A stretch of 64,000 bases of DNA from a virus: the IMG/VR virus record IMGVR_UViG_3300036795_000143, positions 1 through 64,000 of that record. One strand, 5' to 3'. Shown here piece after piece: positions 3,116 to 58,029 of this stretch. Both the position numbers and the translations under genes were made by a program. The notes below the pieces were generated by a model. The model saw only the letters and a program-made list of their open reading frames with translations, made no database searches and was not told the DNA's origin. Position 1 is the stretch's first letter; every line of letters begins with the position of its first letter.

Positions 3116-3549
3116 GGGGTGTTGCCCCGCTTTCCTGCTGGAGCCGATCGGGCGCTGGGATTGGTGGGTAGTACGAACGGTCGGGGGCTCGACGCGTACA
3201 CCCTCAGCCAGCGCCCGACCGGGGTCGGTGGTGTTTGCCGAACAACTTTGGGGGAGGTTGGTGACGTCTGCCGAACTGCGGTGGGGGCAGGCATCCATGC
3301 AGTTGGCATTCACGCAGGCGGGCGAGGATCCGTGCCACTAAGGCGCGGTCTGCGTCCACGGTCACGACTCCCCTCCGTCGGTGGGGTCCTTCCGGCGCTC
3401 AGGGCTACCGCCTGGCGCTGTACGGTCCCTGGCGTACGGTACAGGTCGTACGGTCCAGAGGGACAGTCCCCTTTGGGGTATAACGCACCGTTGAGTGATC
3501 GCTACTGCCCGTCCGGTGGTAGGAGCGCATAGAAGGGACGGACTAAGGT

Positions 3550-4689: not shown

Positions 4690-5530
4690 AGTGCTGCGGC
4701 TGCGGCATCAGCACGGGCGAGGGATCCAGACAGACCTGGTAGTGAATCATTTTGGTGCCATCGGGGGTGAAAAGCGACAACGTCATGAAAGGTACAGTCA
4801 CTTCGCTGCCCTCGTGCCGGGTGAACGTCACCCGGCCAGTGGTCACCGTGCGGTCACCCTCCACCTGCCAATAATCGTCCACGTCATGCCTCACGGAGAC
4901 AATCAGAGAAAAGAAGCCCTCCGTGAATTCTGTTATCGCGAGGCGCCCGACTACGGGCTCGAAATTGCCCCATCGGAGTGTGCCATCTTTAGTGAAATAT
5001 GAGGCGAAAGCAGCGGCCCTCTTGGAATCAACCTCATCGAGTAGGTCATTGAAAAACCGTTCGCCCATGACTTTCGGTTCTTGTAGGAGTAGCCGAGCGG
5101 CCCTGGTGCCGGCTTTCCCCTCGTCCGGTACCCGAACCCGCATGGGGCGCTGCTCCTCGCGCGATATCCGCAGCGCCTCGGGAGTCCTGATCAACTCAGT
5201 CGGTGCCTCAGGGCGGGCAGGATGTGGCAGATCTAACAGGGCCCACATCGCTCCATCTGGTTCCCCTACCCAGGCCCACACGCAGTTGTCGTCGCCGGTG
5301 TCCGGCGGGTTCAGCGCGTCGGCGGGCTTGACTAGTCGCGCCGCTGCTGCCGGACCGTCCACGCGCAGCGTAAGCACGTCGAAGTGCTCTGACCACTCGT
5401 AGACGCAGATCACCGCCGTGGGGCGGTCCTTGGGTCCGCAGCAGTACGCGATGAATCCGTCGTTGACCAGAGCTTGGAACAGCGCATCGATCAGATCTTC
5501 TTGTTTCTGAGCAGCAGCGACCACGACCAT
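4688..5530 (-). CDS. Two-domain protein: unknown N-terminal domain plus C-terminal SnoaL/NTF2-like domain
   Basis: F...FTKDGTLRWGN.EPVVG..AI....VTFTR..G..VTVPF....YQV.LD. Confidence 0.7.
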   Translation of the reverse strand: MVVVAAAQKQEDLIDALFQALVNDGFIAYCCGPKDRPTAVICVYEWSEHFDVLTLRVDGPAAAARLVKPADALNPPDTGDDNCVWAWVGEPDGAMWALLDLPHPARPEAPTELIRTPEALRISREEQRPMRVRVPDEGKAGTRAARLLLQEPKVMGERFFNDLLDEVDSKRAAAFASYFTKDGTLRWGNFEPVVGRLAITEFTEGFFSLIVSVRHDVDDYWQVEGDRTVTTGRVTFTRHEGSEVTVPFMTLSLFTPDGTKMIHYQVCLDPSPVLMPQPQH

Positions 5531-45810: not shown

Positions 45811-46767
45811 GTGGCCAGACGCCCCGACGAATCATGGACCCCGTGTTCCATCTGCGGGAAGCTCCTCGAACCGTATCCCGACAGTCCCGCCGTACGAACC
45901 TGCCAACCATGCCGCTCAGCACGCTCAAAACTCGTACCACGAGGACGCCTCAAAACACTCATACCACCACGACCATGCGAAGAATGCGGCACCGAATACC
46001 AGCCGCAACGCGCAAACCAGCGATGCTGCGACGACACCTGCACCAAAGCCGGGATCGCGCGCCGGGCCGCAACCACCACGACACGCCCCCCGAAAACCTG
46101 CGAATACTGCGGCACGGCCTACAGCCCACACATGCGAACCCAACGCTTCTGCAGCAACCAATGCTCGGCAACTAGCCGGCTCGCGGGAACACCTAAACAT
46201 CACCGAATCTGTGTGGTGTGCGACGCACCATTCATCGGACGAGCTGCCCCCCTACCCGTCACATGCAGCCGCGCCTGCGGATACAAATACCAATCCCGGT
46301 ATCAAAAAGTCTGCGATCTATGCGGAACCGAGTACACCGGCTCAAGCAAACAAAAATACTGCTCAAGGGGCTGCACCGCCCTAGCGAGCCGCTCACCCGA
46401 GAGAAGCAACACGGCCAGCTACAAACGCCGCGCTTCGCTAGCGCAAGTCGCAACAGAGTTCATCGACTTCGAATACGTATGCCGTCGCGACAAATGGATA
46501 TGCCAACTCTGCAACACACCCGTCGAACAAGGACTGAACCGCCGTGACCCCTACGGCGCCAGCCTGGACCACATCCTCCCAATCGTCAGAGGAGGCCCGC
46601 ACATTTACGCCAACGTCCAGCTAGCGCATTTACGCTGCAACATGAAAAAGAACGACAGCGTCATCAACGACTCGTTCGCTGATACCTTCCTCGACGCCCT
46701 CGCAGCCGCCCACACACGCCAACAACCCGAACAAACACCAACCCAACTCACCAGCGCAAACGCCTAA
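45811..46767 (+). CDS. HNH endonuclease with repeated Zn-finger modules
   Basis: Repeated C..CG..Y...CS..C; RD.WICQLC...SLDHILP...GG.H...NVQLAH..CN..K. Confidence 0.88.
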   Translation: MARRPDESWTPCSICGKLLEPYPDSPAVRTCQPCRSARSKLVPRGRLKTLIPPRPCEECGTEYQPQRANQRCCDDTCTKAGIARRAATTTTRPPKTCEYCGTAYSPHMRTQRFCSNQCSATSRLAGTPKHHRICVVCDAPFIGRAAPLPVTCSRACGYKYQSRYQKVCDLCGTEYTGSSKQKYCSRGCTALASRSPERSNTASYKRRASLAQVATEFIDFEYVCRRDKWICQLCNTPVEQGLNRRDPYGASLDHILPIVRGGPHIYANVQLAHLRCNMKKNDSVINDSFADTFLDALAAAHTRQQPEQTPTQLTSANA

Positions 46768-46859
46768 CCCGGCTGCTCGCTTTTTTTCTCAGAGAGGGAA
46801 ATGCACCGGCGAGAAGCTCGCCGATGTTTTTTTTGTGCTAAAAATCACGAATGTCTTTT

Positions 46860-47831: not shown

Positions 47832-48220
47832 ATGTTGACTTCGAAGCGTTGGGTAAGGCTATCCAGGCGTTGGACTTCGACACGGTTTTCACGATCCAGG
47901 GTAGCGACGTCGTCCGCGTAGATCACATCTACGCACCGTCCGTGACGCACGATCCGGATGCGGATATTTGGATCGATGGCGCGGAGTGGGAGTGCTTGAC
48001 GGGGATGACTGGCCAGTACGGCTATCACGGCGCGGTTATGCACGCGTCGGAAGTCATCGGCAGCGGTATCGCGGAGCTGCTTACCGAGTACGACCCTGGC
48101 ACCTTATTTGCAATTGTAATCGTGGATGTGCTGTCTGATGATTGCGAGGATCACGAAGATCACGGTGATGGCAATTGTGAGCCCGCCGGATGGGCGATTG
48201 CGTACCGCGACTCTGTTTGA
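47822..48220 (+). CDS. Acidic conserved actinophage protein
   Basis: W..LTG.TGQYGY.G.VMH.SE.IG...PAGWA. Confidence 0.65.
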   Translation: MAVDVDFEALGKAIQALDFDTVFTIQGSDVVRVDHIYAPSVTHDPDADIWIDGAEWECLTGMTGQYGYHGAVMHASEVIGSGIAELLTEYDPGTLFAIVIVDVLSDDCEDHEDHGDGNCEPAGWAIAYRDSV

Positions 48221-48280
48221 TCTTGCGCCGAACGGTCATGTGTGTTTGTGAAAAATTATCAGCGTGGGAAGGGGGTTGTG

Positions 48281-49222
48281 ATGGGCGACTACAGTCCGGC
48301 AGGGTGGATCGATTTTGTGGGTCAGCCCGACGCGGTCGGGATGATCCGACGATTGCTCAAAGCTGCCGCTCGACGCGGCGATCAGGCTGGTCACGTGTTG
48401 ATTAAGGGTCCGGGTGGTCTCGGGAAATCGGAGCTACTCCACCTGATCGCTAAGTCGATTGGTGGCACGTTGCACGATCACGATGCAACAGCGTTCGAGA
48501 CGGTAGGTGATCTGATCGATGCTCTGGACGTGTTGCAGTCAGGCGACGTGTTCGGCATTGATGAGGTTCACGGGCTGAAAGGTAAGAAGCTGCTTTGCCT
48601 GTACCGGGCACTGGCTAAGGGTGAGATTAGCGCGGGTAGTCAGGTGATCAAATTGCCACCGTTTACGTGTGTCGCTGCGACCACCAACCCTGAGCTACTG
48701 ACTCCGTCGTTTCGTACGCGTTTCGCGATAGAACCTAGCGTGACGTTCTACTCGGTCCCAGAGCTAGCGGACGTGGTGACCCGCGCTGGGAAGCTTTCGA
48801 TGCTCCTGGACGTCGAGCCCGACGCCGCACGGATCATCGCTGAACGGTCCCGTGGCATCCCGCGTACGGCACTGCGACTGTTAGACCGTGTCCGCGATGC
48901 TGTGCCCGTAGGTGAGCAGGTAGCCACCACGGTGCACGTGTTGGACGCGATGAACACGGAAGGCATCGATGATCTAGGGCTAACGCGGTTGGATCGTCAG
49001 GTACTTACTGCGGTCGCAGTGAAATGGGCTCACCGTCCGGTAGGGCTAGCTCCGATCCTGCGATACATCCCGGATCCGGACGCGCGTACCTCCGTGGCGT
49101 TCCTAGAGCGGTATGACCTGATCGAGGCCACGGACGTAGGCCGTGAGGTGACCCTGGCTGGCTTACAGCACTTGTACGGGCCGGATGCGCGGCTACCGTT
49201 GACACGGCGCAGGAGGAGGTGA
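48281..49222 (+). CDS. ruvB: RuvB-like Holliday-junction AAA+ ATPase
   Basis: FVGQ, HVL..GPGGLGKS, IDEVH, LPPFT.V.ATT, R.RF, FY...EL, SRG.PR.A.RLL.RVRD, GL...D, PVGL, GR. Confidence 0.85.
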   Translation: MGDYSPAGWIDFVGQPDAVGMIRRLLKAAARRGDQAGHVLIKGPGGLGKSELLHLIAKSIGGTLHDHDATAFETVGDLIDALDVLQSGDVFGIDEVHGLKGKKLLCLYRALAKGEISAGSQVIKLPPFTCVAATTNPELLTPSFRTRFAIEPSVTFYSVPELADVVTRAGKLSMLLDVEPDAARIIAERSRGIPRTALRLLDRVRDAVPVGEQVATTVHVLDAMNTEGIDDLGLTRLDRQVLTAVAVKWAHRPVGLAPILRYIPDPDARTSVAFLERYDLIEATDVGREVTLAGLQHLYGPDARLPLTRRRRR

Positions 49223-49226
49223 CCGG

Positions 49227-49394
49227 GTGGCCACGGTGCGACGGTGCGAGGTTTGCGGGAAGCCGTTACCGGTGAGGTCGCGGGCGGATGCCCGGTACTG
49301 TCCGCCGGTACCGGGTAGTAAGTCGAGGATTTCTCCGTGTCGTGATCGTGCTGCGTATCTGCGAAAGCTAGGCAAGTCATCCCGCGAGGTCTAA
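49227..49394 (+). CDS. 55-aa Zn-finger protein
   Basis: Manual translation MATVRRCEVCGKPLPVRSRADARYC...CRDRAAY; GGAGG RBS. Confidence 0.6.
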   Translation: MATVRRCEVCGKPLPVRSRADARYCPPVPGSKSRISPCRDRAAYLRKLGKSSREV

Positions 49395-49524
49395 TCGAAT
49401 AACTTTGTGCGACTAGCCGTCACCGTTTGTTGGTGGCGGTTTTTTGTTGTGTCCGTTTCACCCCTTATGGCTAGGCCAAACGGGTCGATCTGTGACATCT
49501 ACCTGGATAAACAGCTAGAACGGC

Positions 49525-49552
49525 TTGCATCCGTGACATCTGCGAGTAGTGT
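49525..49552 (+). promoter_or_regulatory. Candidate housekeeping-sigma promoter
   Basis: TTGCAT-N16-TAGTGT upstream of the structured non-coding region. Confidence 0.3.
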
Positions 49553-49639
49553 TTGTCTTGCAGGCGAAAAACAAAAAAACAATCGGAGAACCTGATCTTG
49601 ACGGTGAGGGATCTTCTGATTCTGATCTTACTCAACTAC

Positions 49640-50127
49640 ATAAGCCACCTAGGCGGTACGAAGCCTAGGGACGTCCAGGCAGCTAACCCGCGAGGGAACC
49701 ACCTAGGACGCCGCCCTGATGATCGCAACTGGGCAAAACCGATTCTTCCGGATCGGGTGTCTCGAACTTGACCCCGTTCTAGGTGGCCCTGGCAGTAGAT
49801 CATTTACTGAGGTGCGGGGTTACGGAGGTGATCCGTTTGTCGGACCCTTCCCAGCTAATGGAGGCGACCGCGTGAGCGGCCTAATTGCCCTCTATGCCAC
49901 CAGACACCCTATCCGGGTATTTCCTTAGGTAAACCGAGTGCGGTAAGCCGCGCCGTGGCTGCGATGTTTGGATGATCTTACCCACATTGCCCCGGTGCGC
50001 GGCCTCGGTTCACCACATCGCAGATGTTGCCAGACCGACTAGGTCCGCTGGTGAGCCGTAATGGCGCCGCAGGTGGCAATCCCGGGCTATGCCCGTGCGA
50101 GCGGTTCGATTCCGTCGTTTGCGGCCA
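49640..50127 (+). ncRNA. Candidate large structured ncRNA ending in a tRNA-like element
   Basis: Many nested and crossing helices, GNRA tetraloops, no credible ORF; ends GGTTCGATTCC...GCGGCCA. Confidence 0.55.
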
Positions 50128-50159
50128 CTCGAAACAAACAAATCCAGGAGGTTCGACCC

Positions 50160-50396
50160 ATGCCTAATACTGTTATTGCTGAACATATAGTGCCGGGAAC
50201 TGACGTAACGATTACCGTTTCGCGTAAGCAAAGTGCAATAGACGGTAAGGTTTATTACCTGACAACGCGGGTTCCTGGCACTAGTGATTTTGTCAACTAC
50301 TTGCAGTGTGGTCGGCATACTGAAAGCGTCGCACGTGAGCAAGCCAATTTTCTGTGGGATGACACGGTTAAGCGCCGTGATGCTGCCCGGTTCTAA
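50160..50396 (+). CDS. Hypothetical early protein
   Basis: AGGAGG RBS. Confidence 0.6.
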   Translation: MPNTVIAEHIVPGTDVTITVSRKQSAIDGKVYYLTTRVPGTSDFVNYLQCGRHTESVAREQANFLWDDTVKRRDAARF

Positions 50397-50416
50397 CAAC
50401 CGTTTAGGAGCCCACC

Positions 50417-50602
50417 GTGTGCGAGATCAAACGGAATGCCGCTGTCACCGGTACGTATTGCCTAGCGTGCGACATTGTGCACGTGGCATATGGCGCGACG
50501 TTAGCGGAATGGTCGGCAGTGTGTAGGGACGCGGAACGCATTAAGCGCGTCGCGGTACTCGATCTAGTTCTCGCTGCCGCTGCCGCTGCGTTAACGCGCT
50601 AG
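50417..50602 (+). CDS. Small hypothetical protein; stop codon lies inside repeat copy 1
   Basis: AGGAG RBS; TAG at 50600-50602. Confidence 0.5.
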   Translation: MCEIKRNAAVTGTYCLACDIVHVAYGATLAEWSAVCRDAERIKRVAVLDLVLAAAAAALTR

Positions 50603-50937
50603 CGCGTTTCCTGACTGTCCAGCTCGCACGGCTGGACAGTTTGGGATGCCCGCTAGGGCAGAGTCACGAATCTGAGGATGGCGCGTCATGCGTTCGACTA
50701 TCACTCTCGAATCCCCTACTACTGTCACCCTGACTCATTCGGCCAGCTGTGCGGCTGCGCTTATCGCGTCCGATGCGCTGCGGTTGGCATTGCGGACCGA
50801 AACGAACCACACGGTTATACGGCAGATGAATACCACGCTGGCCGCCGTGTCCGCTCTGCGCAACGTGACCCATAAGCACTGCCAGCACTAGCCCACGTTT
50901 CGCCCACCGCAACGCGCCGCACGATTAAGGGTTAACC

Positions 50938-51075
50938 ATGTTCACAGTGTTTCGGATCTTTGTTTACGCGGTGAGGACGTACCCGGAAGTGCGCGCGCTG
51001 GTACTCGTTATCGGTTCGTGCCTTCTGGTTTGCTGCCTTATCTCCTGGTATCGCATGGTGGTGCCACTCCGATGA
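50938..51075 (+). CDS. 45-aa membrane peptide
   Basis: Manual translation MFTVFRIFVYAVRTYPEVRALVLVIGSCLLVCCLISWYRMVVPLR; ATGA coupling. Confidence 0.45.
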   Translation: MFTVFRIFVYAVRTYPEVRALVLVIGSCLLVCCLISWYRMVVPLR

Positions 51076-51323
51076 TTGATACCGCAATCGATCGTGAGGC
51101 CAGTCCGGCGCAGAATACCCGCTGGCTTCGACGGATGACTACTGCCCCGGCTATCAAGGGTCACAAGCTACAGCGCGGAACCGCTACCGCGTGGTGTGAG
51201 TGTGGATATTACTGCGGCACGACTACGTCACACGTAGTGCAGCACGGTGGCGCAGATCATATCGAGCCACCTGACGACGTTAATACGCGCCACGATTTGC
51301 ACCGCGTCATTATCGGCCGCTAG
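51072..51323 (+). CDS. Small Cys/His protein; stop codon lies inside repeat copy 2
   Basis: GH....CECG...H..H. Confidence 0.55.
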   Translation: MIDTAIDREASPAQNTRWLRRMTTAPAIKGHKLQRGTATAWCECGYYCGTTTSHVVQHGGADHIEPPDDVNTRHDLHRVIIGR

Positions 51324-51415
51324 CGCGTTTCCTGGCCGTCCAGTCGCTGGACGGTTTGGGATGCCCGCTAGGGCATCAATCGCCCACCGCATTACCGAAT
51401 ATAGGAGAATTTGTC

Positions 51416-52468
51416 ATGTCGAAGCAGACTATCGAATGGTTGAACACAAACGTGCTGGTCGGAATGACCGACGCACGCGGCAACGCGTGGCACTACCGGC
51501 AGAGCGCACAAGGTACGGAGTCGAATCACTACGCGGGTGCTATTCCGATCGAAGACGTCCGGCGTCGGTTGTTCTCCTGGGATGCGGTACCAGCGCGCGT
51601 GGCCGTCGAGGTCGCCGCGACAATGGAGAATGCAACCCACCTATCCGATGACGGGGTGCCGCTGCGGTGGGCAGTCCAGGAGGATCGCAAGGCAATCACC
51701 GCGTCCGACGACGGCACCGTGTTTGAAATGTTCAAATCCGGCTACACATCGCACCAATACAGCGAATGGCTACTGTCGAACGTGGGAACCATCCTCGATG
51801 GTGATCTCGGCATTAGTTCGGCTGGATTGCTCAGCAATCGTGGCGTGGCGTGGGTCGAGGTGGGAGTGCCGGAAACGATTAAGGGTCCGGCCGGTGTCGA
51901 TTTCCGCCCCAATTTGGTGGCGTGCACGTCGCACGATGGCACGCTATCGACGACGTACAAACGAACCGTTACCGCGACAGTGTGCGATAACACGCTAGCC
52001 GCTGCCCTAGGTGAGAAAGGGCAGACGGTGAAAGTCAAGCATTCGAAGTATTCCGGGCTGCGGATCACCGATGCGCGGGTAGCGCTGGCCATGGTCACCG
52101 AAACAGCGGACGCGTTCGCCGATCAGGTCCGACGTTTGACTGATTGGAAAGTCGGACCGTTACAGCTGAAGACGGTCATTAACGCGTTGGTGCCCGTGCC
52201 TGATGAGACGGGTAGGGCTAAGACAATCGCAGAGAAGAAGCAAGGCGAGATTCTGGCGCTTCTGGCTAATGATCTGCGTGTCCAGCCGTGGGCTGGTACC
52301 GCGTTCGGTGTTGTCCAGGCGTTCAACACTTGGACCCATCACATTAAGGGCACCCGTGGCAACGATGGCGGAGGCCGGGCAGAGCGAAACATGCTTTCCG
52401 CTCTGGACGGCAGCACCGATAAGTCAGACGCCATGGTCCTTAGCGTGCTGGCCGCCACGAACGTCTAG
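51416..52468 (+). CDS. DUF932 (TIGR03299-like phage/plasmid) protein
   Basis: AWH, V.RRLF.W, Y..HQY.EWL, SAGLL..G..AWV, TSHDG, VCDNT, KH, GTAFG..QA.NT. Confidence 0.85.
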   Translation: MSKQTIEWLNTNVLVGMTDARGNAWHYRQSAQGTESNHYAGAIPIEDVRRRLFSWDAVPARVAVEVAATMENATHLSDDGVPLRWAVQEDRKAITASDDGTVFEMFKSGYTSHQYSEWLLSNVGTILDGDLGISSAGLLSNRGVAWVEVGVPETIKGPAGVDFRPNLVACTSHDGTLSTTYKRTVTATVCDNTLAAALGEKGQTVKVKHSKYSGLRITDARVALAMVTETADAFADQVRRLTDWKVGPLQLKTVINALVPVPDETGRAKTIAEKKQGEILALLANDLRVQPWAGTAFGVVQAFNTWTHHIKGTRGNDGGGRAERNMLSALDGSTDKSDAMVLSVLAATNV

Positions 52469-52574
52469 GCCGTGTCGCATCACCTAGCGCGTTTCCTGCC
52501 GTCCAGCTCACCGCTGGGCGGCTGGGATGCCCGCTAGGGCACAGACCACCAAATCCAGCGGGAAGGACAGAATC

Positions 52575-53090
52575 ATGCCAGAAACCACCGTTAACGTAGA
52601 CACCGAGATCACCCGTGACGATATCCGCGCCATGCGTATGGCCGATTCCGTCCACTTCCATACTTATCAAGGGCGTTCGTGGATCGTTGCCGAACTGCGG
52701 AATTACGGCCTAGGCCGTATCTACACTGCGACCGAGCAACGGTTATTCTCCGAGGTCCGTAAGTACGGCGCCGATCGTTGCCGTGAGATCGCGGTAGCTA
52801 CTCAACGGCTAGAGGACTACTCCGGCCGTACTGGCGAGTATCAAGCGTTTGCCTCATTCTGCCCTAAGGAAGTGTGGCTGACTATCGTGGCAGCATTACG
52901 GCCGGGCGATATTCTCGGTTTCCATTGGGTCAGGTCGAACAATTCCGAGAGTATGCGGACGATTGGTTACCATCACGATCAGCTACGGCTGATTGCCAGC
53001 ACTCCAGAGCACAAGAATAACCGTCACTGGATTGTCCAAGACCAGTTTGGTCCGGATAATTCCGCGCGGATGGTGCTACGGAATGTTTAG
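52575..53090 (+). CDS. Hypothetical protein
   Basis: GAAGGA RBS after repeat 3; W.T....LR.GD...W...N..DNSARM. Confidence 0.65.
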   Translation: MPETTVNVDTEITRDDIRAMRMADSVHFHTYQGRSWIVAELRNYGLGRIYTATEQRLFSEVRKYGADRCREIAVATQRLEDYSGRTGEYQAFASFCPKEVWLTIVAALRPGDILGFHWVRSNNSESMRTIGYHHDQLRLIASTPEHKNNRHWIVQDQFGPDNSARMVLRNV

Positions 53091-53177
53091 CTCGCCTGGA
53101 TATGTTCCGCGCTGCTCACTTCGGGGGTGAGCGGTCGCGGTGGATAGTCCAGTCTCCAGCCGAAAGGATCCACTGCA

Positions 53178-53789
53178 ATGAGTAGCGACGTTGTCGAAGT
53201 CGACATGAACACCCTCACCATTCCGCGTGTGACCGTGCTTACCGGTCACACTTCCCCCGATACCGCGTACCTAGTAGAAGATTACCCCTATGGGCGCCGT
53301 TTGCGTTGCAAGATCCGCTATTGGATTGAGACAGCGGCTAAGGGCACGGCGAGGGGTCAACAGCGTTTCATGGCGCAGACCACTAACCCTAGGTCGCCTG
53401 AGCCGCACGACGTGTGGAATAGGCCGAAGGCCAGCACGTATTCGCAGATTATGGTTATGTACTTGGACGATATCGACCACGTGCATGCCTGGCACATTCC
53501 GTTGTGGATTGAGGGTACGTTCGACGCTCGCACTCGCGCGATGGGTATTTATGCCGGTTTGTCAAGTTACCAGCGGCAGCTATATGACGATATGCTCGCA
53601 TTCTCTCACAAGCATAACTCGATTAGGTGGGAGGATTACCACGATCGGGTGTCGACGCTAGCCGAATGGATCGCCACTATTGGAATGGCGCCGACGCTGC
53701 GGAACAACGTCTGGTCAAACGGCAATCGCCAGTTCTACCTCAGCGATCCCGCTGCGTACGTAACCGCAGCACGCGCGGCAATCGCCTAA
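53178..53789 (+). CDS. Conserved phage protein
   Basis: TAY.V.DYPYG..LRC.IRYWIE...QT.NP...WN.PK.STY. Confidence 0.7.
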   Translation: MSSDVVEVDMNTLTIPRVTVLTGHTSPDTAYLVEDYPYGRRLRCKIRYWIETAAKGTARGQQRFMAQTTNPRSPEPHDVWNRPKASTYSQIMVMYLDDIDHVHAWHIPLWIEGTFDARTRAMGIYAGLSSYQRQLYDDMLAFSHKHNSIRWEDYHDRVSTLAEWIATIGMAPTLRNNVWSNGNRQFYLSDPAAYVTAARAAIA

Positions 53790-53856
53790 GGCGAATGGTG
53801 CGGGATGCCCGCTAGGGCAACATCCGGAAATTCCGACGTGATGGAAGTGAGTAGCC

Positions 53857-54195
53857 GTGGACGGTTATTTGATGATCACTTTGGTGGTCAAAGCAGGCGA
53901 TGATCCTGCCCGTGCGAGGTCGAACGCAATCGGACGGCTTAACGAGTGGGTGACTGATCGGACGCTAGGCGGTTTCAATGGTGAGCCAAATCGTCCGGGT
54001 GCGCTTCTGCATTACTCAGTGCACGATGACACGGAAACGGCAGACGTCGCGGCGCAAGCGGCTGTAGTGGTTTCCGATGGTATGCACGCGGCAGCGTGTA
54101 AAGCGTTCGATGACACGCTCGCATGGCTAGGGCCACAGTGTGACCGGTCCGCACTCCGTGCGGCTGTTAAGGCAGCTCTCAATTACAGCGCCTAG
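53857..54195 (+). CDS. Hypothetical protein; stop codon lies inside repeat copy 5
   Basis: ORF bounded by repeats. Confidence 0.55.
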   Translation: MDGYLMITLVVKAGDDPARARSNAIGRLNEWVTDRTLGGFNGEPNRPGALLHYSVHDDTETADVAAQAAVVVSDGMHAAACKAFDDTLAWLGPQCDRSALRAAVKAALNYSA

Positions 54196-54279
54196 CGCGT
54201 TTCCTGCCGTCCAGCTGCCACGGCTGGATAGCGGGATGCCCGCTAGGGCAATCTATCTAGCCCTAAGGATGGCCACATC

Positions 54280-55122
54280 ATGAGCGATTACAGCGCCGAA
54301 ACGAGCGCACCAATCAGGAATAAAGCGGGTACGTTCCGTGTCCGTGTCGAATACGATCAGGATGGTACTGGTAACCCGCGTGACAATGATTGCAACACGG
54401 GCACCATGGTCCTATCTCACCGTGGCTATAACTTGCCGAGTGAAGGGGACGTCTCGTTCATCGATCAAATCGATAGGGCTATGGAGCGTGGCGGGCCGCT
54501 CCTAGCGGCACGGTATTTGCGGTATTTGACTTTGACCACAGCGGCTAACGCGGTAGTCCTCACCGTCTACGGGTACGACCACGGGCAACTGAGGCTTAAG
54601 GCAGGCGAGCGTACAGGCAGCTTTGCCGATAAGTGGGATTCTGGTATCGCGGGTGTGATCTACGCGCTACGCGACGATATCGCTAAGGCTCACGAGGGCT
54701 ATCCGATGCCTAGCGATGACGATATCGCCACCTGGCTTAAGAGTGAGGTCCAGGAGTACGACACGTGGGCTAACGGTGAAATGACCGGCTTTATCGTCGA
54801 GGTGCAGTGCGGTAAGTGCCAGGCATGGCGACACGTCGATTCATGTTGGGGCTTCTATAGCGTGAGCGACGCAATGGAGCAAGGCACCGACCAAATACCG
54901 GCTGATCTTAATGGTGTCGAACGCTGCGAGTGTGAGTGGAAGCTGCCGCACCCGTTGAGCGATGCGGCTAGGGCAGTCATCGCGGCAATGTTTGGGGACG
55001 TTAATAGGTCCGGCGTTTCCGCACCGGATGCCGTATGGACCGAGATTCAGCAGGCTTTCCCGTTCGAGCTATTCGAGAATAGGCCGGACGCAGTGACTTA
55101 CGATCCAGAAGCGGGATGGTAA
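54280..55122 (+). CDS. Conserved phage/ICE protein
   Basis: NPR..D.N.G.M, Y.YDH, WDSG..G, EV..Y..W..G...G, DSCWGFY. Confidence 0.7.
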   Translation: MSDYSAETSAPIRNKAGTFRVRVEYDQDGTGNPRDNDCNTGTMVLSHRGYNLPSEGDVSFIDQIDRAMERGGPLLAARYLRYLTLTTAANAVVLTVYGYDHGQLRLKAGERTGSFADKWDSGIAGVIYALRDDIAKAHEGYPMPSDDDIATWLKSEVQEYDTWANGEMTGFIVEVQCGKCQAWRHVDSCWGFYSVSDAMEQGTDQIPADLNGVERCECEWKLPHPLSDAARAVIAAMFGDVNRSGVSAPDAVWTEIQQAFPFELFENRPDAVTYDPEAGW

Positions 55123-55126
55123 ACCA

Positions 55127-55528
55127 ATGATCACGATGGCGATAGACCTTAGTATGGGCGGTCCGGACGTCGATACCGTGCCGAGTGAGCTAGCTACGAT
55201 CCTCCGTGAACTGGCTACGCGCGTGGAGCGTGGCGAGGCCAGCGGACCTATCCGCGACGTTAACCGGAAACGGATAGGAGCGTTTAGCGTTACCGCGCCG
55301 TTAGTGCCGTGCGTCTACTGCGGTAAGCCGGTCGACTATGACCCGCTTGATCCGACGGACGGAGACGTGACCGATAAGGATGGTTTACCGGATTGTTGGG
55401 ATGCGCCTAGGCGCGAGTGCCAGGAATGCGGTAGCAATGGCGAGGATGACCCCGGATGCGGTGAGTGTAGCGATACCGGAAACTCATGGATGGGTCTTCA
55501 CGCGGTAAGAGCACAAGATGAGTCGTAA
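55127..55528 (+). CDS. Hypothetical protein; stop codon at repeat variant 6
   Basis: ELA.ILR.LA......G.IRD.N...G plus CxxC modules. Confidence 0.6.
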   Translation: MITMAIDLSMGGPDVDTVPSELATILRELATRVERGEASGPIRDVNRKRIGAFSVTAPLVPCVYCGKPVDYDPLDPTDGDVTDKDGLPDCWDAPRRECQECGSNGEDDPGCGECSDTGNSWMGLHAVRAQDES

Positions 55529-55637
55529 GTGCGTTGTCCAGGCGCCCGACCACCCGACTAGGGGGGGCCGGGCGTTTGGCCTGCCCGCTTAGGGCAACTA
55601 CCGCAGCACCGAACCCTAGCTAGGAAGGCTGGACACA

Positions 55638-55892
55638 ATGACCGGAAACGATGGCAATACCGAACGGGTGGAAGCTGCGCACGTCGCGCTTAGGGCGTTC
55701 GCTGGACACTGCGGGCCGGATGAATACGGCACCAATCTAGGCGACCCTGATGAGTTTCTCACCATTGCGGGTGACCTGATCGCTAACCTCTTGCACGCTG
55801 CGGACGCGGTAGACGTTGACGCGGACACATTGCTAGGCCGCGCAATCTTGCACTACTCAGCGGAAAGCACCACGCCGTACGACTTGCCCTAA
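55638..55892 (+). CDS. Small acidic helical protein
   Basis: N..R...A..AL......DLIANLLH.....A..HY.AE. Confidence 0.65.
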   Translation: MTGNDGNTERVEAAHVALRAFAGHCGPDEYGTNLGDPDEFLTIAGDLIANLLHAADAVDVDADTLLGRAILHYSAESTTPYDLP

Positions 55893-55923
55893 CCGCACCA
55901 CCCGAACCACGGGAAATCTCGCG

Positions 55924-55995
55924 AGCGTTGATATGGACCAATTGCTAAGCCGCGCCATCCTTCACTATTCAGCGGAAAGCAACGACGTTCCCTAG
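55924..55995 (+). pseudogene. Orphan 3-prime fragment of a paralog of 55638..55892
   Basis: Translates SVDMDQLLSRAILHYSAESNDVP*, versus VDADTLLGRAILHYSAESTTP. Confidence 0.75.
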
Positions 55996-56082
55996 GCGTT
56001 TCCTGACTGTCCAGCCGTGAGCTGGACAGTGCGGGATGCCCGCTAGGGCAGCGACTACCAACAGCCCTAGGGAGGGCACACC

Positions 56083-56583
56083 ATGGCAAGGCAGGCCACG
56101 CGCCGTAGGCGCCGTGATAAGGGTGCGACCGCTGATGATATCCAGGTGGGCGACCTGATCGAACCGAACAACAACGGGTACCGCGCCACGGTTTATTGGC
56201 GTGGCACGTCAAAGAATTGCACCGAGCCTCACGTAGTGCTGCGTTGGACGTATCCGGATGATTTCAGCGTGAACGCGGCGCACCGGGGGCAGTCCAGCGG
56301 CCGAATTTGTCGGCCGGGTGATCCGGTCACGCGTTGGCTGGCACCAAACGAAACAACTAGCAAGGACGGCACGGTGAGCGGTCCGGCGGCTACCCGTGAG
56401 CAGGTACGTGAGCTGGCCGGGGCTATCGCGGCGCAGGCGCAGGCCATCGCGGACGGGACGCACACGGCCTCCGTGTTCGCCGCTGTCTGCCGCGTGTGGT
56501 CCAACGCTGAACTGTTGAAAGCTTGGACGCGTGACGATAGGCAGGATGGGCCTGCCGATCGGCGCGGCTTGCATGCGGTATAG
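56083..56583 (+). CDS. Hypothetical protein
   Basis: GGAGG RBS after repeat 7. Confidence 0.5.
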   Translation: MARQATRRRRRDKGATADDIQVGDLIEPNNNGYRATVYWRGTSKNCTEPHVVLRWTYPDDFSVNAAHRGQSSGRICRPGDPVTRWLAPNETTSKDGTVSGPAATREQVRELAGAIAAQAQAIADGTHTASVFAAVCRVWSNAELLKAWTRDDRQDGPADRRGLHAV

Positions 56584-57037
56584 GCCGCTTGAGCTGCCCG
56601 GTGAGGCGACCGTGCCCGAGTTATCCCCGCAGCGCGCGCCGTGCCGCCGGTGCTGCGGGATTTGCCGCTATCGTGGGCCGTGCCTCCGTTCAGAACCGCC
56701 CCGTACTGCCCCGCCACGCGTGGGCAGCGCGGGGCGTTTTTGTCGTTTGTGGGTACCGCCGAACGGGTCGCGCCAGGCGGGTGGGCTGGGTTTGGGTACC
56801 GCCGAACGGGTGGTGCCTGTCCGTGCCTGCCTGGTCGCGGTGGGTCATGTCCGTTTCCGGAGGTTCGTCCGTTTGCATGTGCGAATCGGACATCGGGGAC
56901 GGACAGCGCAGAGGGGACGGAACGGCCAGCAGGGACGTAAGCGGCATACCGGTCAAACGGGACGAAGGGGGCAAAAGGTGCAAAAAGGATTCGATCTTGT
57001 TCGCGTCGGTGATCAAATCGGTTTGCCGGCAGAGCCG

Positions 57038-57334
57038 ATGATCGGCACCGTACTAGTCGTTCGCGGTGGTCCGCACAACGGGACCGCTGTGCGCCGCTGG
57101 GACGAACAGGGCTGGACTGTCGAGGACGGCACTGGGCGGCTGGTGTGGTTCGAAGTGTTCCGGCTGGCGTTGACCGCGCCGGACGTGGTGCTGGAGGTCA
57201 CGCGAGTGCGGAAGCAGTGCGGGTGGCCGCTGTGCAGGAAGGGTGGCTGGCTGCCGGTTGACCCACCACCGGATCAGGTTTACTGCTCGGACGCGTGCAG
57301 GCAGGCCGCGTCTAGGGACCACCGGAAAAGCTAA
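57038..57334 (+). CDS. Protein with a C-terminal Zn finger
   Basis: C...C....YCSDACRQAA.R. Confidence 0.5.
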   Translation: MIGTVLVVRGGPHNGTAVRRWDEQGWTVEDGTGRLVWFEVFRLALTAPDVVLEVTRVRKQCGWPLCRKGGWLPVDPPPDQVYCSDACRQAASRDHRKS

Positions 57335-57458
57335 AGCATGCTTATTTGTTCTGGCAACAAAGCATGCTTATTTGTTTAGGCAGAAAAGCATGCTTGTGAG
57401 CCAGACCAAAGCATGCTTTTATTGTTTGCCCACCGCACAGGAAAGACTGGAGTCTGAT

Positions 57459-57956: not shown

Positions 57957-58029
57957 TGCGGCGTAGCTCAGTGCAGAGCGCCGGTCAGCGGACCGGAGGA
58001 CGCAGGTTCAACTCCTGCCGCCGCAGCCA
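57957..58029 (+). tRNA. tRNA-like gene with a 6-nt anticodon loop (identity undetermined)
   Basis: TGCGGCG/CGCCGCA, GCTC/GAGC, CCGGT-CAGCGG-ACCGG, GCAGG-TTCAACT-CCTGC, encoded G-CCA. Confidence 0.75.

Follow-up and report, generated by a model that had tools for sequence, protein, structure and literature searches.

The window, i.e. the whole 64,000-nucleotide stretch of DNA analysed here (bases 1–64000 of a 79,278-bp virus record in IMG/VR with an estimated completeness of 93%), includes an operon of co-oriented accessory genes that is punctuated by imperfect hairpins of ~60 nt at its gene junctions. The array consists of five full hairpins of one family, referred to as type A, one half copy and one diverged variant of the same family, and one hairpin of an unrelated family, type B. 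On balance, these elements probably serve as RNA punctuation between cistrons, acting in processing, in protection of 3' ends or in both, and the repeats would provide homology for the shuffling of gene modules as a by-product. The first-pass annotation of the window had described seven co-oriented copies (five full, one right-half and one variant) and had offered two explanations for them, namely (a) an integron-analogous array of attC sites and (b) processing sites of the RNase III type.

The 18-mer GGGATGCCCGCTAGGGCA, which forms the 3' module of type A, occurs in six exact copies, all on the + strand, at positions 50643, 51358, 52524, 53802, 54233 and 56033. The chance expectation is 0.13, all copies lie between 50643 and 56050, and no further copy is present in the 79,278-bp genome. 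The left arm, CTAGCGCGTTTCCTG, is perfectly conserved at 50599, 51320, 52484 and 54192 and is one base short at 55992. In the variant at 55522–55598, the 3' module reads CTGCCCGCTTAGGGCA. The seven copies described at first were confirmed by the distribution of the 18-mer, by the hairpin folds and by the score of the variant with the covariance model R1 (Table 1). The inventory of junctions was otherwise incomplete, as the eighth element, the type B hairpin at 53096–53152, had been missed. The half copy, copy 4, carries a substitute hairpin with the TAA of gene 53178..53789 in its loop, and at the same position metagenome relatives have a full type A hairpin with another apex.

On folding, the five full copies each give one hairpin with a bulge, at energies between −38 and −44 kcal/mol and with z-scores from −3.5 to −5.8; the fold of the variant has −45 kcal/mol. 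The type A layout comprises a 6-bp lower stem, a C·C mismatch, a G-C/U·G step, a U·U mismatch and a 16-pair upper stem with one bulge. The helices thus formed include 23–28 pairs with conserved 1×1 mismatches and a single bulge, and have arms of ~25 nt and loops of 3–5 nt. Unpaired 5-nt spacers, which had been drawn between the outer boxes and the stem, have to be abandoned, since the bases assigned to them are mostly paired (6-bp stem, C·C, 2 bp, U·U, upper stem).

In all eight hairpins, the sense strand folds better than its complement by 5–8 kcal/mol, and there are 2–5 G·U pairs on the sense strand as compared with 0–2 on the complement, in agreement with the wobbles noted earlier on the top strand. 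The sense-strand bias was found in 13 of the 14 junction hairpins when those of three phages were taken together. A genome-wide scan for strong hairpins was uninformative, as windows of ≤−33 kcal/mol occur all along both strands (121 on the + strand alone) at 60% GC.

The earlier claim that the stems covary holds only in part. Among the five full copies, one pair is changed on both sides, five pairs are changed on one side and 17 of 24 are invariant, which is not above the level of shuffled sequences. In the lower stem of the variant, by contrast, two pairs have changed on both sides in a compensatory manner (C-G to U-A, U-A to A-U), with the C·C and U·U mismatches retained, and at the position of copy 4, relatives from the soil runs X2 and X3 combine the type A foot with an apical stem that is quite different. 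The structure is therefore maintained where the sequence has changed, as seen in the variant, in the X2 and X3 relatives, in type B and in the type C hairpins of a more distant phage, L009 (see below).

The 3' module can also refold into a small hairpin, UGCCC-GCUA-GGGCA. This module overlaps the 3' arm of the long stem; hence the long and small folds are mutually exclusive. In copy 2, this is seen in the minimum-energy fold as against the centroid.

The elements are placed precisely with respect to the genes. A stop codon is located in the 5' foot or no more than 15 nt from it, which is also the case in L009, in the related locus L059 and in a variant from X2, and the next start codon follows 25–41 nt 3' of each element. 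The stop codons at 50600, 51321, 54193 and 55526 lie inside the 5' foot, as had been stated. The fifth one reported, the TAG at 55993, closes the tail of a relic gene at 55926–55995, and the live gene ends at 55892.

No U-tract was found at any of the eight hairpins, and the sequence downstream of them is not U-rich. Canonical U-tract terminators are present at 46807 and 49415, and perfect bidirectional ones elsewhere in the genome. Neither is there a conserved promoter (−35/−10) in or after the repeats, and a scan of the region gave six promoter-like sites, with 4.9 expected, none of them at a repeat. A candidate promoter within the element itself (TGGACA, 15 nt, TAGGGC) was rejected, given a −10 hexamer without the conserved final T, a short spacer and a −35-like hexamer that varies among the copies. 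Every feature that could be examined fits option (b), i.e. a fold on the sense strand, an irregular helix of ~24 bp with mismatches, an intercistronic position and the absence of a U-tract and promoter; cleavage itself is only predicted.

Table 1. Hairpins and genes of the array (positions in the window; bit scores refer to the covariance model R1).
Feature	Coordinates	Strand	Relation to genes and remarks	Score
Type A copy 1	50597..50661	+	TAG of gene 50417..50602 in 5' foot; next start 50688, 27 nt on	89.9 bits
Type A copy 2	51318..51376	+	TAG of gene 51072..51323 in foot; DUF932 gene starts 40 nt 3'	78.1 bits
Type A copy 3	52482..52542	+	DUF932 stop (52466-52468) 15 nt 5' of foot; next start 52575	75.9 bits
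Type B hairpin	53096..53152	+	Between genes 52575..53090 and 53178..53789; sequence unrelated to type A, same size and layout	
Half copy 4	53774..53820	+	Intact 18-nt 3' module (53802-53819) after small substitute hairpin	14.7 bits
Type A copy 5	54190..54251	+	TAG of gene 53857..54195 in foot	78.9 bits
Diverged type A variant	55522..55598	+	TAA of gene 55127..55528 in foot	28.7 bits, E 1.8e-4
Relic gene 3' end	55926..55995	+	C-terminus of gene 55638..55892 in a second, diverged copy; its TAG forms the foot of copy 7	
Type A copy 7	55990..56051	+	Gene 56083..56583 begins 32 nt later	73.6 bits
Co-oriented accessory-gene operon	50161..57334	+	14 genes, punctuated by hairpins	
Operon genes, first part	50161..50396, 50417..50602, 50688..50891, 50938..51075, 51072..51323	+		
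Operon genes, middle	51416..52468, 52575..53090, 53178..53789, 53857..54195	+	51416..52468 encodes DUF932	
Operon genes, last part	54280..55122, 55127..55528, 55638..55892, 56083..56583, 56531..57334	+	54280..55122 is phrog_6186; 55638..55892 is phrog_3963	

Copies outside the array were sought in several ways. The covariance model R1 gave no additional ones in the rest of the genome, in L059, in L009 or in the phages Shagrat and Trogglehumper. Exact scans for the 18-mer in IMG/VR and metagenome contigs returned only unrelated single matches lacking the left arm. In one soil-metagenome contig (L049, 3008–3103), GGGATGCCCGCTAGGGCA lies inside each of three tandem 39-bp repeats in an unrelated, AT-richer context. 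A copy with both arms is absent from IMG/VR, from 241 million metagenome records and from 185,579 species genomes; a gapped pattern of both arms gave a single chance match in the last of these, in a coding region. No Rfam family matches the hairpins, and megablast of the array region against 50,697 phage records gave no match. Complementarity to the conserved arms nowhere exceeds 11 nt in the genome, and an antisense partner is therefore unlikely.

The phage to which the array belongs is taken to be a novel actinophage from soil, since its large terminase is no more than 41% identical to anything in the phage collection, with best matches in Rhodococcus, Arthrobacter and Mycobacterium phages, and since the DUF932 protein of the array is closest to Rhodococcus phage proteins (49–51% identity). 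No integrase was found in the genome; hence the phage is probably lytic. Its IMG/VR relative G001 (locus L059), available as DNA, has the same backbone. The two share a RuvB-like gene (34% amino acid identity), the end of a non-coding leader at 50015–50125 (84% nucleotide identity), genes 52575 and 53178 (83% nucleotide identity) and gene 56531 (51% amino acid identity). For gene 52575, 14 homologues were found. No related loci were retrieved with the RuvB-like protein or gene 54280 as the query, and a search of genome contigs for the gene 52575 family was equally negative.

Between these flanks, the array of G001 is only ~2.4 kb long and lacks type A altogether. It includes two type B copies, one after each of the homologues of genes 52575 and 53178, and a search of IMG/VR with the type B pattern retrieved only G001 and one chance match. 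As the flanks are conserved in G001 while the gene content and the type of hairpin differ, the array is a hyperplastic region. A third family, type C, occurs in L009, a more distant phage with an unrelated backbone that has only DUF932 in common with the window (57%). Its four hairpins, at 2766–2840, 3272–3340, 4700–4775 and 5310–5380, have a conserved foot (GAGTGAG...CUCACC) with a TGA stop codon in its 5' part, and a start codon follows about 20–30 nt after. The upper stems of 12–15 bp are perfectly paired and entirely different among the four copies. Different lineages use different hairpin families at the junctions. In the Rhodococcus phage Trogglehumper (L058, 2088–8590), the motif CACTCACCGAATCAAGGGAGACA immediately precedes at least eight right-arm genes, in most cases with no hairpin. 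The motif is associated with start codons, analogous to the start-associated sequences (SAS) of cluster K phages, and has CTCACC in common with the hairpin foot of L009.

Breakpoints were mapped with one IMG/VR relative (G001) and with contigs from soil runs. Relatives are present in contigs of three other soil runs, most of the matching pieces being 80–95% identical and a few higher. Similarity ends at the right edge of copy 1 (50661), 19 nt past copy 3 (52561), at the left edge of the variant (55528) and at the start codon that follows it (55639), and further at 55908. In one X2 relative, position 53074 is joined to 54188 via 14 other bases, and copy 4, the type B hairpin and two genes are missing; the gene 52575 homologue of this variant reads M V R R N H G A before its stop codon, which is the TAG of the copy 5 foot. 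A second joint, at a hairpin-less junction (50891/51078), removes the small gene 50938..51075, and another hairpin-less joint is located at 55098. Copy 4 bears a scar of its own: its left arm is missing, and the type A apical stem is fused to the 3' end of gene 53178 at an ATCG microhomology.

About half of the joints seen, in what is a small sample, abut a hairpin. Some coincide with a left hairpin edge (54188, 55528), some with a right edge or a point shortly after it (50661, 52561), one is in an apical stem (copy 4) and others are at hairpin-less sites; there is therefore no fixed crossover point. Modules are exchanged around the hairpins and also where no hairpin is present. The prediction that related phages would differ in gene content at the repeats holds in part; the pattern of the differences is that of homology-driven shuffling and not of site-specific exchange.

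The enzymes encoded by the phage are in keeping with this pattern. A RecT and YqaJ-type exonuclease pair is encoded at 73049–75381 of the genome (L060, 13049–15381), beyond the window, and a RuvB-like AAA+ ATPase with RuvB_N, lid and C-terminal domains at 48242–49222, just 5' of the leader. These proteins could promote recombination between short homologies. The window had been reported to show no recombinase, and this extends to the whole genome: no tyrosine recombinase (PF00589) was matched at E≤0.1 in the 79,278 bp, the control being matched in 14 of 14 genomes, and no serine recombinase or resolvase and no Y1 HUH enzyme was detected, the controls being matched in the control genomes. The phage genome further encodes no transposase and no RNase III, and a sigma-70 region 4 is absent from it. 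PF00940 (single-subunit RNA polymerase) gave no match, but its control was matched nowhere either.

In the proposed mechanism, the stem-loops would exert their effect in the polycistronic mRNA transcribed from the hypervariable operon of accessory genes. The irregular helix of ~24 bp would be a substrate for an endonuclease specific for double strands, e.g. the RNase III of the host, or would, alternatively or in addition, block 3'-to-5' exonucleases. Cutting or trimming would thereby divide the long transcript into units of one to three genes, each with a protective hairpin at its 3' end. A precedent is the polycistronic early mRNA of T7, in which five signals are cut by RNase III, and mismatches and internal loops are known to direct single-strand cuts by this enzyme that leave stabilising 3' hairpins (PMC3867540). 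A terminating ribosome, or cleavage, may free the 3' arm for formation of the small hairpin, and this could serve to bind a factor or as a cap at the 5' end of the unit that follows. Repeats of ~60 bp at gene boundaries would also constitute, as a by-product, patches of homology across which modules of one to three genes may be gained, lost or replaced; RecT and the exonuclease of the phage could promote such shuffling, with no site-specific recombinase involved. We infer from the sequence that the array is transcribed as a single mRNA, that this is cleaved or protected at the hairpins, that type A switches between two states and that the hairpins have a causal part in recombination.

Several points weigh against RNA punctuation as set out here. 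The five full copies, taken alone, show no significant covariation, and folding of the top strand would fit folded single-stranded DNA equally well, the mRNA fold being the most economical reading because the elements lie inside a co-oriented operon. The invariant 18-nt 3' module and 15-nt left arm exceed what a plain double-helix substrate needs and point to sequence-specific recognition. Since both arms are invariant and the 3' module survives alone in one copy, an added sequence-specific interaction is suggested. The small alternative hairpin is found only in type A, and that part of the model is therefore not general. Gene indels also occur at the hairpin-less junctions 50891/51078 and 55098, so that any role of the hairpins in shuffling is only putative. 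Finally, the presence of RNase III in the host is assumed.

The apparent demand for sequence-specific recognition could be explained if the element were a binding site for a phage or host regulator of the operon, either a boxB-like or translational operator on RNA or a stoperator-like roadblock on DNA, with the long hairpin and the small 3' hairpin as two alternative states. Although judged fairly unlikely, such a site would account for the invariance of the 3' module in six copies, including the half copy where it stands alone, for the GCCC/GGGC stem kept in the variant and for the mutual exclusion of the two folds. The stem of the small hairpin is taken here to resemble lambda boxB, which lambda N binds via an arginine-rich motif, and the gene after the last copy begins with a motif of this kind, MARQATRRRRRDKG. 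The co-oriented and intergenic location of all sites likewise recalls the stoperators of cluster A mycobacteriophages, which are oriented roadblock sites on DNA. However, no boxA-like partner (no systematic search for boxA was made) and no known antiterminator was found, types B and C have no small alternative hairpin, and the compensatory changes together with the G·U bias speak against a site that is purely double-stranded DNA; nor is there a repressor or integrase indicative of lysogeny.

The gene in question, 56083–56583, lies directly after the last hairpin and encodes an arginine-rich protein of 166 amino acids, for which no family, no match in the phage collection and no atlas match was found. 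The similarity of its N-terminus to the RNA-binding N-terminus of lambda N is only a lead. Arginine-rich stretches are common in this GC-rich genome, which counts against a regulatory role for the protein, and a scan for such proteins was too noisy. A more elaborate proposal, and a very improbable one, treats type A as a two-state RNA switch that senses translation: a ribosome terminating at the stop codon of the 5' foot would melt the lower stem, and the boxB-like hairpin then formed by the invariant 3' module would be bound by an arginine-rich protein of the phage, with the product of 56083..56583 as a candidate. Translation of each cassette would thus be coupled to antitermination, processing or translation of the next one. 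If true, an N/boxB-like system would for the first time be found in an actinophage, and for the first time repeated at each boundary between modules.

The remaining explanations are directed to the DNA or to transcription termination. It is unlikely that the repeats are primarily recombination modules like the promoter early stem-loop (PeSL) cassettes of T4-type phages (PMC2839356, PMC4122927), exchanged by RecT and the exonuclease, perhaps via small circles, with any RNA role secondary. The hypervariability of the array between conserved flanks, the joints that abut hairpin edges in several relatives, the gene 52575 homologue fused to copy 5, the half copy and relic gene tail as scars of exchange, and the RecT, YqaJ exonuclease and RuvB-like proteins are all compatible with that view. 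It has to contend with the absence of a sigma-70 promoter and a U-tract terminator, which are the parts that define a PeSL, and with breakpoints at hairpin-less junctions and inside coding ends. Apical stems that differ between copies would lower the homology, not raise it, and recombination alone does not explain the sense-strand pairing, the conserved mismatches and the fixed spacing to stop and start codons.

Terminators or attenuators without a U-tract, grading expression along the operon and possibly modulated by ribosomes via the lower stem, are quite unlikely. Strong GC-rich hairpins do occur directly after stop codons, a stop codon in the 5' foot would let the terminating ribosome open the lower stem, and terminators lacking a U-tract have been proposed for actinobacteria, a point that is disputed. 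Seven or eight of them in 5.5 kb with no intervening promoter would nevertheless silence the distal genes, the sequence 3' of the hairpins is not U-rich, and the same phage has canonical U-tract terminators at operon ends.

Highly improbable is an origin as miniature inverted-repeat transposable elements (MITEs) inserted at YTAR or CTAG targets and hence at stop codons, the flanking CTAG being a target-site duplication. This would agree with the inverted-repeat termini and variable centre of the copies, with the CTAG...CTAG that bounds each full copy, with the stop codon within the first CTAG and with the roughly threefold higher density of CTAG at 48–56 kb than in the rest of the genome. The phage has no transposase and no copies elsewhere in its genome, and as no public collection, i.e. 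neither IMG/VR nor the 241 million metagenome records nor the 185,579 species genomes, contains a copy with both arms, a MITE of the host is unlikely. Co-orientation and precise spacing to the start codon are not expected from random insertion, and the CTAG ends are base pairs of the lower stem, replaced by TAAG/CTTA in the variant.

The attC sites of option (a), with a GCT core and a recombinase of their own, can scarcely be upheld. That proposal had drawn its appeal from a size of 59–65 nt, from an imperfect palindrome in which the base is conserved and the centre variable, from small co-oriented open reading frames (ORFs) that seem to lack promoters and have a stop codon in the first box, and from the differences in gene content between relatives. 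Against it stand the lack of any tyrosine or serine recombinase or HUH enzyme, with controls matched, and of the RYYYAAC/GTTRRRY core, no AAC/GTT being present and the type A feet reading (C)CTAGCG ... CGCTAGG. Moreover, the sense and not the bottom strand is favoured, there are 1×1 mismatches instead of an unpaired central spacer and extrahelical bases, the joints in relatives do not fall at one crossover point, and related phages have unrelated hairpin families at the same junctions. The integron reading is thus largely refuted and is rejected.

Some further features of the region were recorded. The non-coding leader of ~600 nt (49450–50130) is located between a canonical terminator (49415–49450) and the first array gene (ATG at 50161), and no tRNA was called in it by ARAGORN or Rfam. 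Its end, 50015–50125 (~110 nt), which is the stretch conserved at L059 1561–1668, includes the T-arm-like motif GGTTCGATTCC. A tRNA gene was detected at 57957–58029 (Rfam 55.9 bits); ARAGORN assigned it an odd anticodon and could give no isotype. A separate repeat family, probably an array of DNA operators, directly follows gene 56531..57334 and consists of AAAGCATGCTT palindromes clustered at 57333–57433 with spacings of 26, 26 and 23 bp. An HNH endonuclease gene (45811–46767) precedes the gene for the RuvB-like ATPase. Elsewhere in the genome there are an N6/N4 DNA methylase gene at 68614–69987 and a DUF6551/DndB-like gene at 75888–76727. The tetranucleotide CTAG is about threefold denser at 48001–56000 (23 and 26 per 4 kb) than the genome mean of ~8 per 4 kb; the hairpin feet explain only about a dozen of these sites, and seven of the 14 array genes end in TAG.

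Repeated signals at gene junctions have been known from the RNase III sites of T7, the PeSLs of T4, the SAS and extended SAS (ESAS) of cluster K and the repeats of cluster M. The present array is a clean case in that a role in RNA is indicated alike by the strand bias, the compensatory changes, the conserved mismatches and the constant distances to stop and start codons. Three related or neighbouring phage lineages each have a hairpin family of their own, unrelated to the others but built on the same layout, and population variants exchange modules around the hairpins. Type A would provide a compact model of ~60 nt, with an alternative small hairpin, for the punctuation and stabilisation of polycistronic early mRNAs in actinophages, and it may find use as an insulator or processing part for synthetic operons in actinobacteria. 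The finding does not extend integrons to phages or to Actinobacteria.

Among known elements, the Correia/NEMIS and ERIC sequences are transcribed inverted repeats that alter mRNA processing or stability in operons, NEMIS being cut by RNase III. They differ from the hairpins of the array in being dispersed chromosomal MITEs in both orientations, whereas the latter all have the same orientation and occur in a single operon of one phage and nowhere else. Such families of hairpin repeats have been surveyed (PMC2267715). Like attC sites, the elements are imperfect palindromes with a conserved base and a variable centre that follow co-oriented small ORFs, and their size falls within the ~57–141 bp given for the attC palindrome; an integrase, a GTT core, a preference for folding of the bottom strand and a fixed crossover, which belong to attC, are all lacking here. 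The small GCCC/GGGC stem is like that of the lambda nut site, and its loop is GCUA (GCUUA in the variant) as opposed to the GNRA-like loop of the latter.

The PeSLs of T4-type phages are similar in being repeated motifs at the junctions of small ORFans in a hyperplastic region (PMC2839356, PMC4122927). In T4-type phages, indels and replacements between close relatives are bounded by the motifs and result from homologous and not site-specific recombination; the shuffling around the array resembles this, about half of the joints seen abutting a hairpin. A PeSL combines a strong sigma-70 promoter with an efficient terminator, whereas neither a promoter nor a U-tract was found in the array. The RNase III sites of the early and late polycistronic mRNA of T7 have no sequence similarity to type A, and differ further in the host, which is actinobacterial here, and in that cleavage here is only predicted; the stop codon in the 5' foot, the refolding invariant 3' module and the unrelated hairpin families in relatives are likewise peculiar to the present elements. 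In both cases, co-oriented intercistronic hairpins are located in one long transcript, form an irregular helix of about two turns with mismatches, delimit units of one to three genes, have sequence common to the copies and are followed by no promoter or U-tract.

The nearest described relatives in kind are the SAS and ESAS of cluster K phages (PMC3203893, PMC12699233) and the CR3/CR4 repeats of cluster M with their upstream stem-loops (PMC7953290). The 13-bp SAS, GGGATAGGAGCCC, contains the ribosome-binding site and is separated from the start codon by 3–8 bp, whereas the module of type A lies 25–41 nt 5' of the start codon and is tied to the preceding stop codon; only GGGAT is common to the two, and the sequences are unrelated. 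The ESAS are 17-bp imperfect inverted repeats with a spacer of 4–13 bp, as compared with arms of ~25 nt and loops of 3–5 nt here, and the ESAS palindromes of phage TM4, when folded in this work, showed no sense-strand bias, unlike these elements. Nonetheless, all are repeats of actinophages that occur in one orientation in the non-structural arm. They are imperfect inverted repeats with a variable spacer 5' of a subset of genes, and their consensus differs among related phages. In cluster M phages, moreover, gene insertions are accompanied by a copy of the repeat (PMC7953290).

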